A stretch of 60,804 nucleotides of DNA from a virus (IMGVR_UViG_3300036760_000364:1-60804); one strand, 5' to 3'. Positions 43,006-51,469 are shown, counted from the first letter of the stretch. The notes: generated by a model not told the origin, from the sequence alone. Numbers and translations: made by a program.

Positions 43006-44256
43006 ATGGCAGATGATTATACAAACAACCCTGAATTAAACTCCTGGGTAAAGCAGTTTACTTCAAATTTTCCAGGCCCGACAAGTAAGCCACTTGTCAA
43101 TGTACCTTCAAGTCAGGGAGCAGTGCCACTGGTAACTTACACACCCGGAACTCCACCTGCAATCACAAAGATCTGGAAACCCGGAGGAGAGAGTGTCGAA
43201 AAAGCCGTTAATGCGGCGAATGCTTATACTAAATATAATGTACCGCCTGTTAGTTCTTCTGGGTATAACGTACCTTCAGTTAGCCCATTCGGATATGATG
43301 TAACACGAGGAATCCTTACCGGCCAGTGGCCTGCACCTGTGCCGCCTGCTATGAGTCCTCCATCACCTACTCCAGTGCCTACCACCTCTTCGTTCCCGCA
43401 GAATTACGCTGGTTATAAAGGAACCGTTACAGATGCAATGATGGCTGAGCGAAATCGGGCAACCGGATGGATTCCCTCAAACATCCCAAGGCCCAACACT
43501 CCTGAATACGCCACATGGTCAGCACAACAGGCCAAAGAAGATGCAAATCGCTGGAATGCGGTTGACCTATCGAGACTTGCAAGAGAACGGGAAGCCGCAA
43601 CAGCTTATGCCCGTCAGGTAATGGAAGCTGCAACTATGGCCGATATACAACACCGTGCCGACGTTGAGAGGTGGGAACGACAACCACATCTTTTTGCAAC
43701 GGAACTTGCTGCCGAGTATGCCGGACGACACCCCTCCTCACTGGCAGTTCCGGCAACAGCAGCATATCAAGCTGCTCTTGGTGGTGAGGAAGCAGCCACC
43801 GTAGCCCGTGCCAAGCTTCCCGGAGAACTGGGGATGAGTGAGGCAGAACTGGGCTACAAAAAATCCGAGATTGAAAAGAACAAAGCCTATGCAGACTGGC
43901 TGACAAAAGGAAGGGTGCAAGCGGCTCAAGCTGAACTTGAGCGCAAGAAACAGGTTCAGGCTGATAGAGCAGCAGCCGCAGAGGAAGCCGCACAGCAGAA
44001 AAGAATTAAAGCATATCAGGATTATGAGAAGAGTTGGGCTTCCGGGGAACATCTCTCAACCGAAAAAATGCTAACCCCGGAACAATGGCTTGCCCGCTAC
44101 GGGGCATTCTATAAACCCACATCTGCCGCTGTACCAAAACGTGGCGGGGATGAAACACTTAGTTCGGCAGCGGGAGCCCCTCCAGGAGCCGTACAGGGAG
44201 TTCAAATGCCCGATGGAACCATGAAATATTGGGATGCCCAAGGAAATGAACTATAA
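43006..44256 (+). CDS. Internal virion (ejection) protein
   Basis: AAGGAGG RBS; Pro/Ala-rich and helical; precedes the giant virion protein. Confidence 0.55.
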   Translation: MADDYTNNPELNSWVKQFTSNFPGPTSKPLVNVPSSQGAVPLVTYTPGTPPAITKIWKPGGESVEKAVNAANAYTKYNVPPVSSSGYNVPSVSPFGYDVTRGILTGQWPAPVPPAMSPPSPTPVPTTSSFPQNYAGYKGTVTDAMMAERNRATGWIPSNIPRPNTPEYATWSAQQAKEDANRWNAVDLSRLAREREAATAYARQVMEAATMADIQHRADVERWERQPHLFATELAAEYAGRHPSSLAVPATAAYQAALGGEEAATVARAKLPGELGMSEAELGYKKSEIEKNKAYADWLTKGRVQAAQAELERKKQVQADRAAAAEEAAQQKRIKAYQDYEKSWASGEHLSTEKMLTPEQWLARYGAFYKPTSAAVPKRGGDETLSSAAGAPPGAVQGVQMPDGTMKYWDAQGNEL

Positions 44257-47200
44257 TGACCTACGATGAAGCTATTCAAGTCGGTGGAAAGCCGATTGAT
44301 ATACAGGCACAAGAAACAATACCCGCCGCACCCGTCGCAAAATTAACCTATGAGGAAGCGATTAAAGCCGGGGGAAAACCTATTCCGGTACAACAACCTC
44401 AAAACATTTATTCCAAATCCGAGGCCCTGCCTCCCGAACAACAAGCCGGGTATCTGTATGAGCAGCCTTTCACAAGACCAAGTGCCGCTGTTCCTGAAAC
44501 AGGTTTATGGGCGGCAGCCAAGGGAGGACTGACACAATCATCTGCGGGGCTCGGATACCGTATTGCTGCCGGAGAGAAAGGAATGCCTGCTCCGTATCAA
44601 CCACAGGGATTTCTTGAGAAACTTGCTATGGGTGCAGGAGAATTAGCCGGTGATATTCCTGCAATGATTGGAGGCGGAGTTGCCGGTTCTGCTGTGCCTA
44701 TTGTAGGAACTACTGCTGGAGCTCTCATGGCTCCCGCTGCAATAAAGGAAACAGAAAAAGCCTATTTAGCTCCTGAAACAACCTCCCTCGGAAAAGCTGC
44801 TAAAGAGGTAGCCATTGCAGGTACAGTTGGTAAATTAATGGAATTCGTAGGCGGAGCAACATTTTTACGTGCCCTCGCACCGGAGTTTCGTCCAATGTAT
44901 CAAGCAGCCGTTAAAGCCGGGGATACCCTGGCAGCAAGAAGCATTATTACGGCTGCTCAGGCAAGTGGAAAGTTTTCGCCTATGATAGCCAAAGCAGTTA
45001 CCCCTGCCGCAGAAATAGCCACAATGGGCACAGCAGAACCCCTCATTCGTGAGGGTAGACTTCCAACCGCAGAGGAACTTGCTTTAACTGCGCTGCCAAT
45101 TACAGGATTGCATATGGCTGGAAAAGTTGGAGGAGCAATTAAATCTGCTGCTGTGCCGGAGGTTAAACCGAAACCGGTTGCCTCAGTTGCTGTTCCGCCA
45201 ATCGAAAAAGGTGGAATGCTTAATGAACCTGCGGTGCGAAAGCAATTTGCTGAAATGGGAATCGAACAACCCACTCCCGGTCTCGCAGAATATGTAACCC
45301 AACGGCCTGAGCTCCATACACCGGAAGTTGTTGCTGAGGCCAACCGGATTAAACAGGATATGTTTGCGCCTCTTAAAGAGGAAAAAGGTGCGATTAGTGT
45401 TGGAAAGCCTGAAACTGAAACACCTCCAATAGACCGCCGTGCGATAGATCGCCTCGATACTCCTAAATCACTTAGAGAACAACTTGATATTGTACGTGAA
45501 AGAATCGAATTCTGGAATAAAGAATTCAAACCAAAGAACGCAGCAGAGGAAATATCTCAAAGAATAGAGATTGAACGGCTTCCTAAAATCGAACAAGAAC
45601 TAACTGACCAACTCAAAGCTGTTGAGGCCTCCAAGGAATTAAAAGACCTGGGAATAGAGCCTCCGCCTGTTTCACCTAAAGAGCCGGTTTCACCAATTGT
45701 TGAAAAGCCCCCTATAGGTGAAACACCTCCTGTCGAGAATCTCCGTCCCGCTATTCAAACTCGCCGAGGGCTTCTTGAGGGGGTCGTTGGCGAAAGTCAC
45801 ATCGATATTCTCAAACGTACAGGCACAAAAGAGTCTCTTGACCACTCAAAGGGGTTCATAACTCCCGATGGGCAATTCCTTAATCGCAAACAGGCAATGG
45901 ATTGGCTTAAGGATAACCAACCTGAAGTCGCAGCGAAACTTAAAGAGCAAGGGGTCAAGGCGCTTCACACCGAGGATTATAATGCAGCGGTTAAAGAAGT
46001 TACCAGAGTCGGTCGTCAAGCCGAACTCAGCCCGCTTTTAGCAAAAAGCTCTGACTCGCTTTTAAGGGCTTACAACCTCAAAGATATTTCTGAAGTTACC
46101 CCGGAAGTTGTAACCAAAATGTCGCAGGATCTGAATCTGCCCGAAAAGGTAATCCAGCAGAATCTCGGACTGCCGTTTTTAAGGTCTGAAGAAGTTCCTA
46201 TAACCAGACCTGAACCTCCAAAGCCTATAGCAGATATTTCTACAACGCCTACTGAAGAAACATTAATCCAACGTTATATAGAAGGTACGTTAGAAATACC
46301 AGAGAAGATAAAACAAAAAGCAACAGAATATATGAAAAAAGGCGGCTATCAGGCTCCATCAAAGATTAGAGAAAGATATGATAATTATATATACAAACAT
46401 TACATACAAAAGATAGCTAGATCTGAATTAGAAACACCGCCGGTTACAGCAGAAGTTCCTCCTGAAACCAAACTCTATGGTGGCGGCCCCTCAACTGAAG
46501 AAATCCTCAAAACAGGAAAGCAATCCGCCGGGGATATTATCGATAAGGCCCGTGAGTTCATCCAAACAGCCAAACGGTCTTTTGGTCATCCCTTTTCTGA
46601 AGTCGAAGCCGCCAAGGGAGCAATGCTTAAACACCATGAAGTAATTCGAGACAGTGCCTGGATGAATAATCTTATAACCAAATGGGGCATTCAACAATAT
46701 GACAAACTGGGTGTTAAGTTAGGAGACAAAGATAAGATTGAAACCCAAACTAATATCCTACTCGCCACTGAAGATCCCGAGCTTAAAGCACAACTTCCCA
46801 GAGAACAACAGACGATGTTAAATCACGCCGAAGAACTCCAAAAATCCATCACCAAGTATGCTGTTGATAATGGCCTGATTACCGCTGAAGTTGCTGCAAA
46901 ACATCCTAACTATATCAAGCACTGGTTAATTGATCCCAAAACCGGAGAGCCGTTTTCGCCCTTTTGGGGGCAATTTTCCAAGAGTGGCCCTTCAATGAAA
47001 GAACGTACCTTTGGAACGTACAAAGAGGCTATGGCCGCTGGATACCAACCGGCTACACTTAATGTAGCAGAGCTTGTTGGTAAAAGCTACCAGGAGGTGC
47101 ATCGTATTGTTGAAACCCGCAAGATGCTTGCCACAATACGCCAGATCGAATCCCCTGTAGGCGGAGAGATGTTGCGCTCTGCCCAGGGAGAACTCAAACC

Positions 47201-48881
47201 AATGCGTATCATGGAACCGTGGTCACGGCTGATTAAACAAAACAAGACCGACGGCTATACCAAATTCGATCATCGGCTGCTTGACTATGCAATTCATTAT
47301 AAAGATCAAGACGGAGTATCACACATTATCGAGGGGCCAGTTGGAGTTCGAAAAGAGTTCCTTCCGTGGGTTAGGGCATATATAGAGAACCCCACATACT
47401 CAAAAGCCGAGCAACTCAATAATATGTTTAAAACCGGTAAGATGACTTCGGGCTTTCATATAATCTCATTGACCGCAAATGGGCTCGCCGGCGGACGTGG
47501 AATAGCTGGAAAGATGCCTATTGAGAACGTCATTCGGGGCCTCAAAGAAGCTGAGGTAATGTCTCCTGAACTGCGGGTACTTAATAAATGTGGGCTGGAT
47601 GCCTTTAAACGTATCAACTATGAAGATATCGGACGCTATCACAACATGCTCTATGGTGGAGGACTTGTCAAGAAAACTATAACCTTCGTACCCCGGGAAA
47701 TGACCGCACTCACTTTTGATGTTGTTCATCGGGGGCTTTCTGTTAGTCTCGGGCTGGATATATTTCGGGATATGAAACAACGTGCCATTAACAGGGTGGA
47801 ACGACCTCTTACCGTGGCAGAAGAAACTGAAATTGGCTATAAAGCAGTTGATATCGTAACCAACATGCTAAGTGGCGGCGATGCTAAATCCAAGATGCTG
47901 CGGGCAACCGAGTGGATGGCAAAATACTGGTATAGCCCAGAAGCAAGACAGAAATGGCAATTTGGTTTGCTCTCCCCTTCCTGGCAACGAGCTCACATCG
48001 CCATAGCCAAGGAAATTCTTAAATCCGTTGCGCATCCAATGGCACTCGAATCGAAATACTATCGTGGCTATGTGTATGGCGCAATAGGTGTTTATGCGGC
48101 GGCAAATCTCTATAATTATTTTATGACACAATACCTGGACGGCGAAGGAAAGTGGATGTTTGAGAACCCTAATCCCTGGGTTGTCAGGATGCCTTGGAAT
48201 AATCCTGATGGGTCAGCAGTCTACGGGCGACTCTTAAAATCTATCTTCGAGATTCCCGAAGCGATTCAAGACTTATCTGGACGTGTTATAGCAAAGGTAA
48301 GCCCGCCTATTGGGGCAGCCCTGCATTATTACAAGGACAGGTTGGCTAAATCGAACACGGAACTTGCAAAGGACTTCGTGAAAGATCTAGCTCTTCCAAT
48401 GGCCGCACAACGCACTGAGGAATGGATGAAAGGTAAAGCTGCTTTACCAACTGCTCTCGCACCGGTTATTGGAGTTCCTATGACTGCCAGTAAAGCCCAC
48501 ACTCCCGCTGAAGTTGCCGCATCTCGTTATATGACGAAAAAATACTCAGGGTTATTTCAGCAAACCAAGGAAAGCGAGCTCCGCAAGAATATTGTGGACT
48601 CATTCAGGCGCAGTCCTTATATTGACATGTTGCCTAAAAAGGAACGAGCGTTTTATGAGACTCTTTCAGAAACTACACGGAGGAGGCTCAGAAATGAAGC
48701 CCAGTTAGGCTACCTGGAAGGTGCAATCTCCCATCTCTCCATCGATGAGGCTTTTGAGGTCTATAAAAAGGCTAACCCCGAAGAACGTCAGAAACTTTTC
48801 AAACACATTCAATCAAGGCTCCGTGACGTACCATCCGACAAGAGAGATGCAGCTATCTTAAAATGGAGGGCATTGCAATAA
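44256..48881 (+). CDS. Large internal virion / DNA-ejection protein (1541 aa)
   Basis: Size, Ala/Gly hydrophobic N-terminal region, last gene of the morphogenesis module. Confidence 0.65.
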   Translation: MTYDEAIQVGGKPIDIQAQETIPAAPVAKLTYEEAIKAGGKPIPVQQPQNIYSKSEALPPEQQAGYLYEQPFTRPSAAVPETGLWAAAKGGLTQSSAGLGYRIAAGEKGMPAPYQPQGFLEKLAMGAGELAGDIPAMIGGGVAGSAVPIVGTTAGALMAPAAIKETEKAYLAPETTSLGKAAKEVAIAGTVGKLMEFVGGATFLRALAPEFRPMYQAAVKAGDTLAARSIITAAQASGKFSPMIAKAVTPAAEIATMGTAEPLIREGRLPTAEELALTALPITGLHMAGKVGGAIKSAAVPEVKPKPVASVAVPPIEKGGMLNEPAVRKQFAEMGIEQPTPGLAEYVTQRPELHTPEVVAEANRIKQDMFAPLKEEKGAISVGKPETETPPIDRRAIDRLDTPKSLREQLDIVRERIEFWNKEFKPKNAAEEISQRIEIERLPKIEQELTDQLKAVEASKELKDLGIEPPPVSPKEPVSPIVEKPPIGETPPVENLRPAIQTRRGLLEGVVGESHIDILKRTGTKESLDHSKGFITPDGQFLNRKQAMDWLKDNQPEVAAKLKEQGVKALHTEDYNAAVKEVTRVGRQAELSPLLAKSSDSLLRAYNLKDISEVTPEVVTKMSQDLNLPEKVIQQNLGLPFLRSEEVPITRPEPPKPIADISTTPTEETLIQRYIEGTLEIPEKIKQKATEYMKKGGYQAPSKIRERYDNYIYKHYIQKIARSELETPPVTAEVPPETKLYGGGPSTEEILKTGKQSAGDIIDKAREFIQTAKRSFGHPFSEVEAAKGAMLKHHEVIRDSAWMNNLITKWGIQQYDKLGVKLGDKDKIETQTNILLATEDPELKAQLPREQQTMLNHAEELQKSITKYAVDNGLITAEVAAKHPNYIKHWLIDPKTGEPFSPFWGQFSKSGPSMKERTFGTYKEAMAAGYQPATLNVAELVGKSYQEVHRIVETRKMLATIRQIESPVGGEMLRSAQGELKPMRIMEPWSRLIKQNKTDGYTKFDHRLLDYAIHYKDQDGVSHIIEGPVGVRKEFLPWVRAYIENPTYSKAEQLNNMFKTGKMTSGFHIISLTANGLAGGRGIAGKMPIENVIRGLKEAEVMSPELRVLNKCGLDAFKRINYEDIGRYHNMLYGGGLVKKTITFVPREMTALTFDVVHRGLSVSLGLDIFRDMKQRAINRVERPLTVAEETEIGYKAVDIVTNMLSGGDAKSKMLRATEWMAKYWYSPEARQKWQFGLLSPSWQRAHIAIAKEILKSVAHPMALESKYYRGYVYGAIGVYAAANLYNYFMTQYLDGEGKWMFENPNPWVVRMPWNNPDGSAVYGRLLKSIFEIPEAIQDLSGRVIAKVSPPIGAALHYYKDRLAKSNTELAKDFVKDLALPMAAQRTEEWMKGKAALPTALAPVIGVPMTASKAHTPAEVAASRYMTKKYSGLFQQTKESELRKNIVDSFRRSPYIDMLPKKERAFYETLSETTRRRLRNEAQLGYLEGAISHLSIDEAFEVYKKANPEERQKLFKHIQSRLRDVPSDKRDAAILKWRALQ

Positions 48882-50137
48882 TGGCTACTCCGAAAGCATT
48901 ATTTTTTGATTATGGATTATTTCTTGGGATAGCAATGGAGTTTGCAAGGCACGGGATTGATACAGGTTATTATAGTCCCTGGAAAGGTTCAATGCCTACT
49001 GCGGAGAAAGCTCAAATTGGCGAGGGGATTGATGGTATCGATAATGAATGGCAGTTTTTTGATGCCGTCAGGAAACGCAACAAACATGAGGACGTAATTA
49101 TCTTCCCTGATGTCGGAGATGGCGATCTCATTACGCATCTTCGGGAAGATGGTTATAATGTTTTTGGCTCAGGCCATTCGGATATTATCGAAATGAACCG
49201 ACTTCAACTCAAGGAGGTGCTTAAAAAAGTCGGGCTGCCTGTGATACCGTTTAAACATATTATTGGAATCGATGCTCTCGAAAAGCACCTCAAAACCGTC
49301 AATAATAAATACATCAAGACTTCCTATTTCAGGGGCCTGATGGAAACCATGCACCATGATACGTGGGATCACTCCAAGCAGCGTATTGACAAGCTTCGTC
49401 ATGATGCAGGAGCTTTCCAGAATAAAATGGATTTCATTGTTGAGGATCCCGTTGAGGGCATTGAATGGGGAACAGAATGGTTCTGTGCCAAGAAGGGTTT
49501 CTTACCAATGGGTGCAATAGGAATCGAGAACAAGAACACCTGCTACCTTGGAAAACCAATCTCACTTTATGATCTGCCTGCTCCCTTCGGGGAGGTTCAT
49601 GATAACCTGGAAGGGTGGTTTGTTCGGCATGGCTTGCTTGGAGCCTTTAGCACGGAAGTCCTGGTGGATGAGAACCTGACTCCCTGGTTCAATGATGCCA
49701 CACAACGCTTTGGCTCCCCCCCGGATGCCTCTCTTTGTAACCTGTGGGAGAATCTCTCGGACAATATGATAGCAATTGCTAAAGGGGAATCACCACAGCT
49801 AAAAGCAAATGCTAAATATGTGGCTCAGGTATTTTTAAAGTCGGAATGGGCAGTCCAGGAGACCACATATCTTGATTTCCCTGAAGAAAACCTTGGCAGA
49901 TTGTTCTTTCGGAACCTCTGCAAGATGGATGACAGGTATCTTTACGTCCCCCAGGATAAGTCTGACATTGTAGGCTCAGCAGTGGGGCTTGGTAACACTA
50001 TCGAGGAAGCTGAAGCAAATGCTTTCAAAATGGCAGAGACGGTAACGGCAGATGAATTAACATATGCTAAAGATGGATTTGATAAGATACACGAATCCAT
50101 CGAGACAGCTAAATCATTCGGAATGGGGGAATTCTAA
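48881..50137 (+). CDS. ATP-grasp ligase, PurD (GAR synthetase)-like fold
   Basis: VFGS.....E.NR...K..L.KVGLP, YIKTS, FIVE..VEGIE, NDAT.RFG.P. Confidence 0.8.
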   Translation: MATPKALFFDYGLFLGIAMEFARHGIDTGYYSPWKGSMPTAEKAQIGEGIDGIDNEWQFFDAVRKRNKHEDVIIFPDVGDGDLITHLREDGYNVFGSGHSDIIEMNRLQLKEVLKKVGLPVIPFKHIIGIDALEKHLKTVNNKYIKTSYFRGLMETMHHDTWDHSKQRIDKLRHDAGAFQNKMDFIVEDPVEGIEWGTEWFCAKKGFLPMGAIGIENKNTCYLGKPISLYDLPAPFGEVHDNLEGWFVRHGLLGAFSTEVLVDENLTPWFNDATQRFGSPPDASLCNLWENLSDNMIAIAKGESPQLKANAKYVAQVFLKSEWAVQETTYLDFPEENLGRLFFRNLCKMDDRYLYVPQDKSDIVGSAVGLGNTIEEAEANAFKMAETVTADELTYAKDGFDKIHESIETAKSFGMGEF

Positions 50138-50544
50138 TGGCATTGAGTATTCATGTTATTACAATTGATGGAACAGATATGAGATATCCTACTGTCGGGG
50201 ATTATATCGGTACACCTAATGCAAGGGTTGTTATGGTGGCTGAAATGGGGGATTGGAGAAAGGAATTGCTTGTTGCGGTACATGAGATAATTGAACAATC
50301 TCTCTGCTTTGATCGGGGAATTAGCGAAAAAGCCATCACCGCTTTCGATAAACATTTTGAAGCTACCAAGGGGAATACCCATGAGGAACCCGGAAACTAG
50401 CCTGATGCGCCTTACTATAAAGAACATCAATTCGCCACAAAAATCGAGAGGGAACTATGTAAGAAATTGAGATTGTCCTGGAAAGAATATAATGACGCTG
50501 TAAACGAAACTTTCGACAAGGCTTTTTCAAAGGAGGAAACTTAG
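50137..50544 (+). CDS. HExxE-motif protein with in-frame TAG at 50398-50400
   Basis: RY.TVGD, AVHEIIE, EEPGN*PDAPYYKEHQFATKIER; frame stays open 47 codons up to the next gene. Confidence 0.7.
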
Positions 50545-50946
50545 TTGGCCAAAATCGTTAAACCATTTGGGGTGCAGCTTTTGCTCGATTGTTATGAATG
50601 TAGCCATGAGGCTATTGACAATCTGGATATCGGTTATACATTTCTTGAAGAGGCCGTTGAGGTACTGGGAGTCCATAAACAGGCTCCCCCGTATATTTTC
50701 AGAACACCGACAGAGTTTGAAGACAAGGCCGGTTTGAGTGGGGTTGTAATGCTTGTGGAATCATCGATTGTGCTTCATACGCTGTGCGTAAGGGATTATG
50801 TTAGTATAGATTATTATACATGCTCCATCATTGACAGATACAAAAAATCTGCCCTTATTGAACTGGCCCAGGACACCTTCAACCCGACTCATATCGAAAC
50901 GCAATTCCTCAAACGAGGCAGAGCCTATTATGGACAAACCGCTTAA
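50545..50946 (+). CDS. speD: S-adenosylmethionine decarboxylase-like proenzyme (pyruvoyl-dependent)
   Basis: FG.QLLLD.Y.C, GLSGVVMLVES-SIVLHT cleavage motif, IDYYTCS, LKRG; AAGGAGG RBS with TTG start. Confidence 0.85.
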   Translation: MAKIVKPFGVQLLLDCYECSHEAIDNLDIGYTFLEEAVEVLGVHKQAPPYIFRTPTEFEDKAGLSGVVMLVESSIVLHTLCVRDYVSIDYYTCSIIDRYKKSALIELAQDTFNPTHIETQFLKRGRAYYGQTA

Positions 50947-51064: not shown

Positions 51065-51469
51065 ATGCAAGTTGAAATAAACAGCCAGAATATGCAGGGA
51101 TTTCTTGTTGTGTTAACTATCTGTGCCATTATTCTGAAAGGGGCTTTTACGGCAATTGGAGCATGGCATAAATCAAAATCCAAGGTAATAATGAAGGAAG
51201 ATTATCAAGTAGCTCATACCGCACTTCAGACAGAACTTGAGGCATTTAAGGCAGCCTGTGAAAGGAGACGGGCTGAGTGTATGAATTACCTACTGGCCAT
51301 TAAAGAAAAACAAACAGAACTCCGCCAAAAGCTCCCGCTGGATTATCTGCTCAAGAACGATTTCCGTCAGGAAATGCAGGGGATCAAAGAGTGGTTAACC
51401 TCAATAGATAACAAGATTGACAAGTTAATATCATGCCGTTTGTATGACCGTGAGGAGGAAACAAAATGA
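51065..51469 (+). CDS. Membrane-anchored coiled-coil protein
   Basis: N-terminal TM, heptads; AAGGAG RBS. Confidence 0.7.
   Translation: MQVEINSQNMQGFLVVLTICAIILKGAFTAIGAWHKSKSKVIMKEDYQVAHTALQTELEAFKAACERRRAECMNYLLAIKEKQTELRQKLPLDYLLKNDFRQEMQGIKEWLTSIDNKIDKLISCRLYDREEETK

Follow-up and report, generated by a model that had tools for sequence, protein, structure and literature searches.

A recurrent ATP-grasp ligase and SpeD-like decarboxylase module in a phage late operon, with a possible role in amine ligation

Sequence comparisons indicate that three neighbouring genes in a 60,804-nucleotide stretch of viral DNA (IMGVR_UViG_3300036760_000364; the whole stretch is referred to here as the window) form a real, recurrent and functionally coupled module, relatives of which were seen in numerous uncultured phages. 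They encode an ATP-grasp ligase, a small protein with a His/Glu motif, and a SpeD-like decarboxylase. Our preferred interpretation, which we hold tentatively and regard as somewhat short of probable, is that of a late-operon module in which an ATP-grasp amidoligase would use an amine fed to it by the decarboxylase, with a domain of the giant protein encoded just upstream as its partner. That the module ligates amines is plausible, and the interpretation draws on homology, conserved catalytic residues, co-occurrence, gene fusions and operon structure, from which we infer the reaction, its substrates and target, and the direction and order of the steps. We found no published description of a module of ligase, SpeD and small protein in the literature.

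Organization of the module in the late operon

All of the features described here are on the plus strand. In the ORF calls, the large genes of the structural operon end with one for a 1541-aa protein (44256–48881), and structural genes upstream of it match the virion families phrog_26502 and phrog_10969. The gene for the 418-aa ligase (48881–50137) follows directly; its ATG at 48881 shares one base with the TAA of the 1541-aa gene (TAATG), and a GGAGG sequence lies approximately 10 nt 5′ of the ATG. The ligase stop codon and the ATG of the small gene likewise overlap by one base at 50137. The SpeD-like ORF (133 aa, 50545–50946) starts with TTG preceded by AGGAGG, and no terminator-like site was found between the module genes.

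The initial annotation described the three genes as chained behind the 1541-aa gene through overlapping or abutting stops and starts, and as belonging to the late operon rather than the replication arm. The one-base overlaps at 48881 and 50137 bear out the chain, and the ORF map together with the structural phrog matches places the module in the structural and lysis operon, outside the replication arm. The 87-aa ORF then recorded as the small gene (50137–50400) is only the 5′ part of a 135-codon gene (50137–50544), recognizable from the family alignment and the open frame, and is ended by an in-frame TAG at codon 88 (50398–50400). Past the TAG the frame remains open as far as 50544, and its translation contains the conserved 'PDAPYYKEH...' half of the protein; the apparent 144-bp gap ahead of the SpeD-like gene is therefore coding, and the complete small gene runs directly up to the SpeD-like start. 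The reported lack of spermidine synthase and of other purine genes also holds: PF01564 gave no matches in the window (the control was positive in 10 of 14 genomes), spermidine synthase was likewise not found in five related records, and a Pfam scan of 67 window ORFs (7 and a further 60) detected no further purine or polyamine families.

An ATP-grasp ligase with a predicted PurD-like fold

When a profile of the ligase family was compared with the PDB, structures of PurD were the top matches, with E values ranging from 2.7e-12 (for 2yw2) to 4e-6 in this sequence-profile comparison; the matches cover positions ~82–147 and ~246–406, corresponding to the ATP-grasp core and the C-domain. These matches make the 418-aa protein a remote relative of PurD and an ATP-grasp enzyme with a predicted PurD fold, in line with the initial annotation. 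It matches no Pfam or PHROG family, and its own family is large, with 1066 representative clusters of relatives. The likeness to PurD (2yw2, 1vkz, 5vev) includes an aligned 'VKxx' lysine and a D/E...R...G.P motif: K146 corresponds to the lysine in the 'VVKAD' strand of PurD, and D272 and R276 align with the E and R of 'EFNxRxGDPE'. We take K146, D272 and R276 to be ATP- or Mg-binding residues.

Residue conservation was counted over 167 family members, after dropping 5 of 172 proteins with lengths outside 350–600 aa. E104, K146, R151, E216, E259, R276 and P280 are kept in all 167, and D272 (166/167), K218 (166/167) and E195 (165/167) are nearly invariant. The lysine that binds ATP in ATP-grasp enzymes, the acidic residues that coordinate Mg and the catalytic arginine are therefore all retained (K146, E259 and R276 in every member, D272 in all but one), and the ligase is predicted to be catalytically intact. 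Four homologues (P0088, P0169, P0189, P0191) are split by inteins, which usually insert at conserved sites of important enzymes.

The ligase differs from PurD in several respects. The ATP-grasp Mg site has an E-x-N motif, with the Asn two residues past the second acidic ligand; this Asn is replaced in the ligase family, being absent from the four commonest residues at position 274, which account for 165 of the 167 members (T in 86, C in 63, A in 11, and S in 5). The N-terminal region is also distinct, with 'DYGLF' at the place of the Gly-rich motif found near the PurD N-terminus. Acidic residues are kept in this N-domain (D10 in 155/167 members, D71 and D77 in 151/167 each, and the invariant E104), and such an acidic domain would be a good match for a positively charged amine as substrate.

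It is extremely improbable that the ligase is an ordinary GAR synthetase (PurD) with which the phage would increase purine synthesis in the host. Its best structural relatives are indeed PurD enzymes, and homologues in Aquificae viruses carry database labels of purD or purK-like, but it scores only 24.6 bits against TIGR00877, for which the cut-off is 288, and this rules out assignment as a GAR synthetase, in keeping with the earlier view that it is no ordinary PurD; the same model gives P0199, a homologue, 29.9 bits. Pfam shows no GARS match, the gene lies in a late structural operon in a window that lacks further pur genes, and the family is set apart by invariant residues and by fusion partners of its own, namely a 90-aa virion-protein domain, a HAD-like domain, and the inteins. 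The ligase would thus act outside the purine pathway despite its predicted PurD-like fold.

A role in nucleotide or DNA modification is also very unlikely. The ligase would then act on a nucleotide, as its relatives PurD, PurK and PurT do, and would couple an amino acid or an amine to a sugar or base destined for phage DNA. Such a role would accord with the nearest solved relatives all being ribonucleotide-acting enzymes, with the occurrence of amine-bearing hypermodified bases in phages, and with the presence in the window of nucleoside-deoxyribosyltransferase-like families (DUF1937 and DUF4406) in the Pfam scan. However, the module is in the structural and lysis operon, no hydroxymethylase or known hypermodification family was found by Pfam among the 67 window ORFs, 'DYGLF' replaces the PurD Gly-rich motif, and the ligase is fused in other genomes to a domain of a virion protein.

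The SpeD-like decarboxylase, the small gene, and their recurrence

The 133-aa SpeD-like protein matches PF02675 (E value 5.6e-16; 59.3 bits, with a gathering cut-off of 25) and phrog_3125 (E value 5.2e-14), is class 1b AdoMetDC-like, and can be aligned to the AdoMetDC structures 2iii and 1tlu. S73 and C93 align with 'ISES' and 'TC' respectively of T. maritima AdoMetDC and are invariant among 26 SpeD-like neighbours of the ligase, and Glu72-Ser73 (codons at 50758–50763) is at the processing position, as noted in the initial annotation. We conclude from these similarities that this is a SpeD-fold pyruvoyl proenzyme with predicted self-processing, in which cleavage would convert Ser73 to the pyruvoyl group. 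The TIGR03330 score of 54.5 bits is under the equivalog cut-off of 75.65, the level that would imply a SAM substrate, and the 'WPE' following the HT motif is replaced by 'LCV'.

Characterized phage SpeD homologues (Li et al., PNAS 2023, PMC9992855; JBC 2023, PMC10407285) share with the window protein (133 aa) the class 1b size, PF02675, the Glu-Ser site, the conserved Cys, and the absence of an accompanying spermidine synthase. In the available sections of these reports, phage homologues are identified as AdoMetDC, arginine decarboxylase or ornithine decarboxylase (PMC9992855), and a missing spermidine synthase is taken to flag a non-AdoMetDC activity (PMC9992855, PMC10407285). Those sections treat SpeD as a polyamine gene, and mention no ATP-grasp neighbour (PMC9992855, PMC10407285).

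To define linkage among 81 related IMG/VR ligase loci we used a distance of no more than 700 bp on the same strand. A SpeD-like gene is present in 39 loci and the small protein in 23, and every one is linked by this definition (38 of the SpeD-like genes being upstream of the ligase), so the genes do co-occur elsewhere; both partners are present in 10 loci, and one (L061) encodes a fusion of SpeD and the small protein. Eight short metagenome contigs with the ligase include five with the small protein and two with SpeD. Both partners are missing from 29 of the 81 loci, and 23 of these 29 extend for 1.5 kb or more on each side; neither partner was detectable in three Aquificae-virus and Nitrospirota ligase loci. 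Since 29 loci lack both partners, we regard the ligase as the core and the SpeD-like and small genes as accessories. Five ligase-only phage records contain neither PF02675 nor a PLP-type ornithine/arginine decarboxylase anywhere, and the decarboxylase is thus dispensable for ligase function.

An alternative explanation is that the ligase and SpeD have two unrelated functions that share late expression, with SpeD as a stand-alone auxiliary metabolic gene providing polyamine or agmatine counter-ions for DNA packaging. The ligase is also found alone, the module adjoins terminase and portal genes in several phages, and stand-alone phage SpeD genes are described as common and active in the accessible part of one report (PMC9992855). 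We nonetheless consider this quite unlikely, because the tight same-strand linkage of all 39 SpeD-like genes extends across ligases that are only about 30–45% identical to one another and across two SpeD sequence types, 'ES..HT' (as in the window) and 'TESF..DTWPD', which are on separate branches of the ligase tree. Moreover, the ligase-linked SpeDs are remote from those of cultured phages, and one copy (L037) has no match in 50,697 phage records.

The small gene is predicted to be knocked out by the nonsense codon in the present genome. The TAG falls midway in the family motif EPG..APY..EH; TAG serves this phage as a regular stop codon, terminating 21 of 97 ORFs, and no tRNA genes were found in its sequence. 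In an independent run (X2) from a different sample, a related strain has C at position 50398, which turns TAG into CAG (Gln), in one 305-nt contig at a depth of 5.41. In the family alignment (A4), H49, E53, G61 and D71 are invariant. The initial annotation viewed the product as a small, putative HExxE/H metalloprotein and suggested that it acts as an eraser or maturase. The H49-E-x-x-E53 motif is present, and PF02742, the metal-binding domain of iron-dependent repressors, matches weakly in 7 of 20 family members (best E value 0.0027) as the sole repeated match, but the motif is not the zincin HExxH and the gene is interrupted. None of the 20 members matches a peptidase Pfam family at E values up to 1, leaving the eraser or maturase proposal unsupported. 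The small protein has no PDB match, and no carrier-protein signature was recognized in a Pfam scan of family members. It appears to be a dispensable accessory with conserved His, Glu and Asp residues that is probably metal-binding.

The giant upstream protein and a proposed scheme

The 1541-aa protein has no Pfam, PHROG or PDB sequence match. Its earlier designation as a virion or ejection protein was not confirmed by any family or structure match; from its position and size, it may be a virion protein, internal or ejected, of the polyvalent type. As a giant and putatively multi-domain late protein it would resemble the polyvalent proteins (Iyer et al. 2017, PMC5512222), and it has a domain in common with an ART-PolyVal protein, but MuF and other polyvalent hallmark domains were not detected in it by Pfam. 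In the accessible text of that survey, RNA ligases are the sole context for ATP-grasp, and the domain described below and its fusion to a PurD-like ligase are not found (PMC5512222).

A domain of approximately 90 aa within the giant protein (residues ~495–578, with an HMM envelope of 495–578; nucleotides 45738–45989) is homologous to the N-terminal extension of many ligase homologues, with BLASTP E values of 1e-13 to P0100 and 1e-18 to P0041. Among 35 proteins with this domain, 28 are fusions to the ligase N-terminus, and it is also present in a 1430-aa protein bearing an ART-PolyVal domain. It was detected in five of the 81 loci, fused to the ligase in four and in the upstream giant protein in one, and has no Pfam or PDB match. 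The ligase is fused to this domain more often than to any other, and its coupling to the giant protein is therefore stronger than was first seen. The invariant residues are A, H, F, R and L; there is no obvious ligation site in the form of an invariant Glu, Asp or Lys.

ATP-grasp ligases act together with small proteins in the butirosin (BtrI/BtrJ/BtrK) and LysW/LysX systems, and the butirosin decarboxylase acts on the ligated residue. The module described here differs in that its decarboxylase is pyruvoyl-type rather than PLP-type, its small protein is dispensable, without a carrier signature, and its setting is a phage virion operon. A similar order of steps could apply: the ligase would tether an amino acid by its side chain to a target or carrier, for which the small protein and the 90-aa domain are candidates, and the pyruvoyl enzyme would then decarboxylate the tethered residue at its still unbound alpha-amino acid end. 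The three-part set of ligase, small protein and decarboxylase and the SpeD fusion in L061 are consistent with this, and a natural substrate other than free amino acids would fit the low kcat/Km values of phage ODC/ADC-type SpeD homologues on these, mostly 66–290 per M per s and 1.3 per M per s for UCP04 with arginine in the tables of one report (PMC9992855). We regard this order as unlikely: roughly half of the ligase loci have no SpeD and about 70% have no small protein, the small gene is broken in the present phage, its product is not recognizable as a carrier protein, and the 90-aa domain has no invariant Glu, Asp or Lys.

In the interpretation that we prefer, by analogy with all ATP-grasp ligases, the ligase would convert a carboxylate into an acyl-phosphate, which would then be coupled to an amine; the target may be a protein, DNA or a small molecule. 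The SpeD-fold enzyme is the most likely source of that amine, through decarboxylation of SAM, arginine, ornithine or a similar amino acid, and the phages without a SpeD-like gene, about half of the relatives, would take an amine from the host. The fusion pattern suggests that the 90-aa domain most likely docks, targets or presents a substrate to the ligase. Glutathionylspermidine synthetase and other polyamine amidoligases use ATP to link a carboxylate to an amine group of a polyamine, and the module would carry out the same type of reaction if SpeD feeds the ligase, although no sequence relationship to them is detectable. The module points to an amide-forming chemistry that would be undescribed.

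A coupled gene set at the end of the late operon

The window is a complete virus record of 60,804 bp with two divergent arms, a replication arm encoding a family-A DNA polymerase and a primase, and a long plus-strand late operon containing terminase, portal-like and virion structural genes. The late operon closes with three large ORFs (729, 445 and 1541 aa), followed by genes for a 418-aa ATP-grasp ligase (48881–50137), a small protein (50137–50544) and a 133-aa SpeD-like protein (50545–50946). The TAA of the 1541-aa ORF (44256–48881) lies at 48879–48881 and the ligase ATG at 48881, a TAATG overlap with GGAGG about 10 nt upstream; we place the ligase start here and not at 48863 because homologues begin at the same residue. 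The ligase TAA overlaps the small-gene ATG at 50137 in the same manner, the SpeD-like ORF has a TTG start at 50545 preceded by AGGAGG, and no terminator-like site was found between these genes on the plus strand. The initial annotation had described a translationally coupled unit situated in the late operon rather than the replication arm, and the arrangement reads as such. The gene after the module (51065–51469) has a hydrophobic N-terminus and a match to phrog_462 'lipoprotein' (E 3.6e-8), and is probably part of a lysis cassette ending the late operon. Among the remaining window genes are those for a long pentapeptide-repeat protein (E 1.2e-62), DUF1937 and DUF4406 (two families resembling nucleoside deoxyribosyltransferases), a Dam-type methylase, a PD-(D/E)XK nuclease, an SU10-type adaptor and a SocA/Panacea-like domain.

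The ligase matches no family in Pfam or PHROG. A profile of 24 homologues places PurD structures at the top of its PDB matches (2yw2, E 2.7e-12; 1vkz, 3e-9; 5vev, 9e-9), followed by weak matches to biotin carboxylase and PurK, in agreement with its first identification as a PurD-like ATP-grasp enzyme. The NCBI purD model scores it at 24.6 bits against a cut-off of 288, so far below that, on sequence grounds, we consider the ligase to be PurD-like in fold class and not a GAR synthetase. That it is nevertheless a true PurD has the leading structural matches to recommend it and the purD-model score against it, and we regard this as extremely improbable.

An exhaustive search returned 1066 representative ligase clusters at E ≤ 0.001 (894 at ≤ 1e-10 and 492 at ≤ 1e-30), and a word-indexed search 27 relatives at E ≤ 0.001 among 3771 candidates. 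Ligase relatives are encoded in 137 of 239 candidate stretches from IMG/VR, and only three of 50,697 deposited phage records contain one, all of them metagenome-derived Aquificae viruses in which the copies are labelled purD-like, purK-like or hypothetical. The comparison with cultured phages gave no DNA-level relative of the region, and the ESM Atlas had no entry for the ligase sequence or its homologue P0014. A pattern-based scan of species genomes, with a reach of close relatives only, gave as its sole match a homologue with 40% identity on a Nitrospirota MAG chromosome (L085; OY760142.1, 3211255–3224484), probably within a prophage.

Conservation was counted on 167 family members, five of 172 being left out for length. 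Residues E104, K146, R151, E216, E259, R276 and P280 are present in all 167, D272 and K218 in 166 each, and E195 in 165, and the usual ATP-grasp Asn position is T, C, A or S. The ligase is thus predicted to be an enzyme under strong constraint. Inteins interrupt four homologues (P0088, P0169, P0189 and P0191); these are 770–902 aa long, with LAGLIDADG and intein-splicing matches in P0169 and P0189 and at least two insertion points in the family, one near the D272–R276 motif. At 49750–49777, one short contig (165 nt, depth 3.8) from X2, an independent sequencing run with a related strain, has six clustered ligase changes, one of them N291D, where the family hardly varies; a more distant strain or an error may account for this contig.

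Partners of the ligase gene

We called ORFs in 81 IMG/VR loci (80 kept and one from a second scan) and searched them iteratively with the window's proteins. A SpeD-like gene lies beside the ligase in 39 loci and the small-protein gene in 23, always within 700 bp and on the ligase's strand, with 38 and 11 respectively located upstream; both are present in 10 loci and neither in 29, of which 23 extend for 1.5 kb or more in both directions. The two partners are fused in a single 251-aa ORF in one locus (L061), and among eight short metagenome contigs (1.1–4.1 kb) the small protein is found in five and SpeD in two. In a FastTree phylogeny of 82 ligases (midpoint-rooted, with no statistical test) the SpeD-linked members fill one large clade and occur in three or more further branches, that of the window among them. 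From the linkage counts and this spread we conclude that the genes do recur together elsewhere, a point on which the initial proposal of a joint system depended. The loci with neither partner speak for, and the linkage counts against, the alternative that these genes have unrelated functions with late expression in common, which we consider decidedly unlikely. No SpeD and no small protein were found at the Aquificae-virus and Nitrospirota loci, the Aquificae neighbours having been checked by HMM and hhalign, and five ligase-only viral records contain no PF02675 match and no PLP-type Orn/Arg decarboxylase anywhere; the divergent SpeD type may escape the PF02675 model. At the core of the module stands the ligase, with the SpeD-like and small proteins as frequent accessories.

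In other phages the neighbours of the ligase include a P22-type portal, large terminase, internal virion protein (phrog_418), tail fibre and unannotated proteins of 700–2300 aa. A locus classed as a Bradyrhizobium betae provirus (L037) has the order large terminase, SpeD, ligase, two small ORFs and portal, with the major head protein further on; its SpeD is identical to B. betae WP_151642130.1, and a cultured bacterium with a TerL-SpeD-ligase-portal prophage appears to exist. The SpeD of another locus (L075) is identical to proteins of Hyphomicrobiales MAGs, and the Aquificae viruses have their ligase gene placed between those for portal and terminase. In several lineages the portal, terminase and head neighbours thus mark the ligase gene as part of the head and virion module.

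The SpeD-like protein matches PF02675 (E 5.6e-16) and phrog_3125 (5.2e-14) and can be aligned to AdoMetDC structures 2iii and 1tlu. It has Glu72-Ser73 at the predicted self-cleavage position, His78 in an 'HT' motif and Cys93, and its earlier description as a SpeD-fold proenzyme with an E-S site is well founded. It falls below the AdoMetDC equivalog cut-off (54.5 versus 75.65 bits) and has no counterpart of the 'WPE' found after HT in enzymes of known structure. Ligase-adjoining SpeD-like genes are of two sequence types, that of the window ('ES..HT') and a majority type ('TESF..DTWPD') in which Asp replaces His, with Ser and Cys invariant in all 26 aligned sequences. No spermidine synthase was found in the window, as had been noted from the outset, or in five related viral records, three of which are at least 90% complete. 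Two reports (PMC9992855; PMC10407285) show that a phage SpeD homologue can be a true AdoMetDC or can have neofunctionalised into a decarboxylase of arginine (pelagiphage HTVC201P) or of ornithine, these last two kinds having kcat/Km values of mostly 66–290 per M per s; a term search for an ATP-grasp neighbour of SpeD gave no occurrence in either. These kinetic values would fit, and the ligase loci that have no SpeD-like neighbour speak against, an alternative order of events, in which ligation comes first and decarboxylation then takes place on a carrier; we think this unlikely.

The small gene and its nonsense codon

Twenty homologues of the small protein, about 110–140 aa in length, have H49, E53, G61 and D71 in common together with a C-terminal 'EPG..APY..EH'. 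In the window the small ORF ends at a TAG (50398–50400) positioned between 'EPGN' and 'PDAPYYKEH', and the frame is then open to 50544; the true small gene thus has 135 codons and abuts the SpeD start. The 87-aa HExxE gene that the initial annotation took to be complete is the 5' part of this longer gene, cut by the in-frame TAG. One frame (50137–50946) contains the small gene, the part reached by read-through and SpeD, with two TAG codons dividing them. We considered TAG recoding and rejected it, as TAG ends 21 of the 97 window ORFs, large structural genes included, and no tRNA gene, and so no suppressor, is present; the TAG at 50398–50400 is a nonsense codon. X2 belongs to another study and another sample; in it a single contig of 305 nt (depth 5.41, 7 differences) has C at 50398, giving CAG (Gln). 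A second run is identical to the window and could be where the window's sequence came from, so that it does not count as independent. With CAG in the X2 strain and TAG in the window, the small gene is intact in a close relative, and in this genome it is broken or read through at a low level.

The small protein had also been cast as an eraser or maturase. We found no support for a peptidase role: its motif is HExxE and not HExxH and its only repeated family match, a weak one, is to the metal-binding domain of iron-dependent repressors (7 of 20 homologues, best E 0.0027). It has no match in the PDB. One 227-aa small protein (L024, 9414–10097) has an Erv1/Alr sulfhydryl-oxidase domain fused at its C-terminus (E 1.4e-7), and a member of equal length is encoded in L027 (2143–2826). 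Fused small-protein forms above 441 aa were not found, which is weak evidence.

A domain common to ligase homologues and the giant protein, and possible functions

Some ligase homologues are about 100–150 aa longer at the N-terminus, and four such extensions resemble each other and also residues ~495–585 of the 1541-aa giant protein; BLASTP with this region gives P0100 (E 1e-13, 35% identity) and P0041 (1e-18, 40% identity). Run against longer sequences, a profile built on this ~90-aa domain gave 35 proteins, which HMM comparison divides into 28 domain-ligase fusions, five giants (1220–1771 aa) and two other proteins of ~500 aa. The giants include the window's own, a protein of 1771 aa encoded immediately before the module in L043, and a 1430-aa protein carrying an ART-PolyVal domain, which PMC5512222 presents as a hallmark of 'polyvalent' proteins thought to be ejected with phage DNA. 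The domain has invariant A, H, F, R and L residues, was detected in only five of the 81 loci, and has no match in Pfam or the PDB; PF26092 is precomputed for four fusion proteins and was not reproduced by a local Pfam scan. A complex prediction with the ligase and the domain scored 0.00, which counts neither for nor against binding. Of the evidence that the ligase would work with, on or attached to the giant putative virion protein, the fusion pattern is the strongest, and it does not distinguish among the three.

Where long ligase homologues have some other N-terminal extension, it corresponds neither to SpeD nor to the small protein. Two (P0066 and P0105) have a different, mutually related extension of ~125–150 aa (E 2.7e-12), that of P0066 being weakly HAD-phosphatase-like (PF08282, E 3.3e-4). 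The giant protein begins with two copies of the repeat 'TY(D/E)EAI(Q/K).GGKPI' about 30 residues apart (44256–44420) and has Pro/Glu-rich linkers around the 90-aa domain.

The reading we favour, with somewhat less than even confidence and with every chemical step being one that we infer, is a late-expressed amidoligase module composed of the ligase, SpeD amine supply, a small helper and a docking domain. The ligase would join a carboxylate to an amine, which the SpeD-like enzyme, where present, would supply; that SpeD is often missing would fit a polyamine, agmatine or a similar substrate which the host produces as well, and a cationic substrate would go well with the acidic residues conserved in the ligase N-domain. 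The small protein would be a dispensable helper, probably metal-binding, and the 90-aa domain would dock or present a partner. A more specific form of this, which we hold to be of low probability, is that the ligase, docked on or carrying the 90-aa domain of the giant, putatively ejected protein, puts decarboxylase-made amines (agmatine, putrescine or aminopropyl-type) on acidic residues of internal virion proteins, or builds a polycationic amide that is packaged with DNA. If true, such 'polyamination' would be a novel kind of post-translational modification encoded by phages, serving to adjust how DNA is packaged or ejected, or to act on the host once ejection has taken place. The head and virion neighbours and the domain fusions speak against a role of the module in nucleotide or DNA modification, which we judge quite improbable.

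No description of the ligase family, its SpeD linkage or the 90-aa domain was found in a search of full-text literature that included term searches or reading of PMC9992855, PMC10407285, PMC5512222, PMC7824862 and PMC7689252, with subscription-only papers and supplements lying outside its range. The amidoligase module favoured here combines known kinds of enzyme, an ATP-grasp amidoligase and a pyruvoyl decarboxylase, in a new setting; as a system it is not new in category. We consider the finding real and deserving of follow-up and its interpretation reasonable but unproven, the small-protein part having needed correction. There are more than a thousand representative clusters in public metagenomes, without a Pfam or PHROG model, of an enzyme that is predicted to be active, has three recurrent partners and is encoded in head and virion operons of numerous uncultured tailed phages, and a tractable system may exist in the B. 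betae provirus. The ligase could show how enzymes are tied to giant ejected proteins, and knowing what it makes would bring to phage biology a reaction not described before, and would explain the many phage 'SpeD' genes that are poor on free amino acids and have no spermidine synthase.
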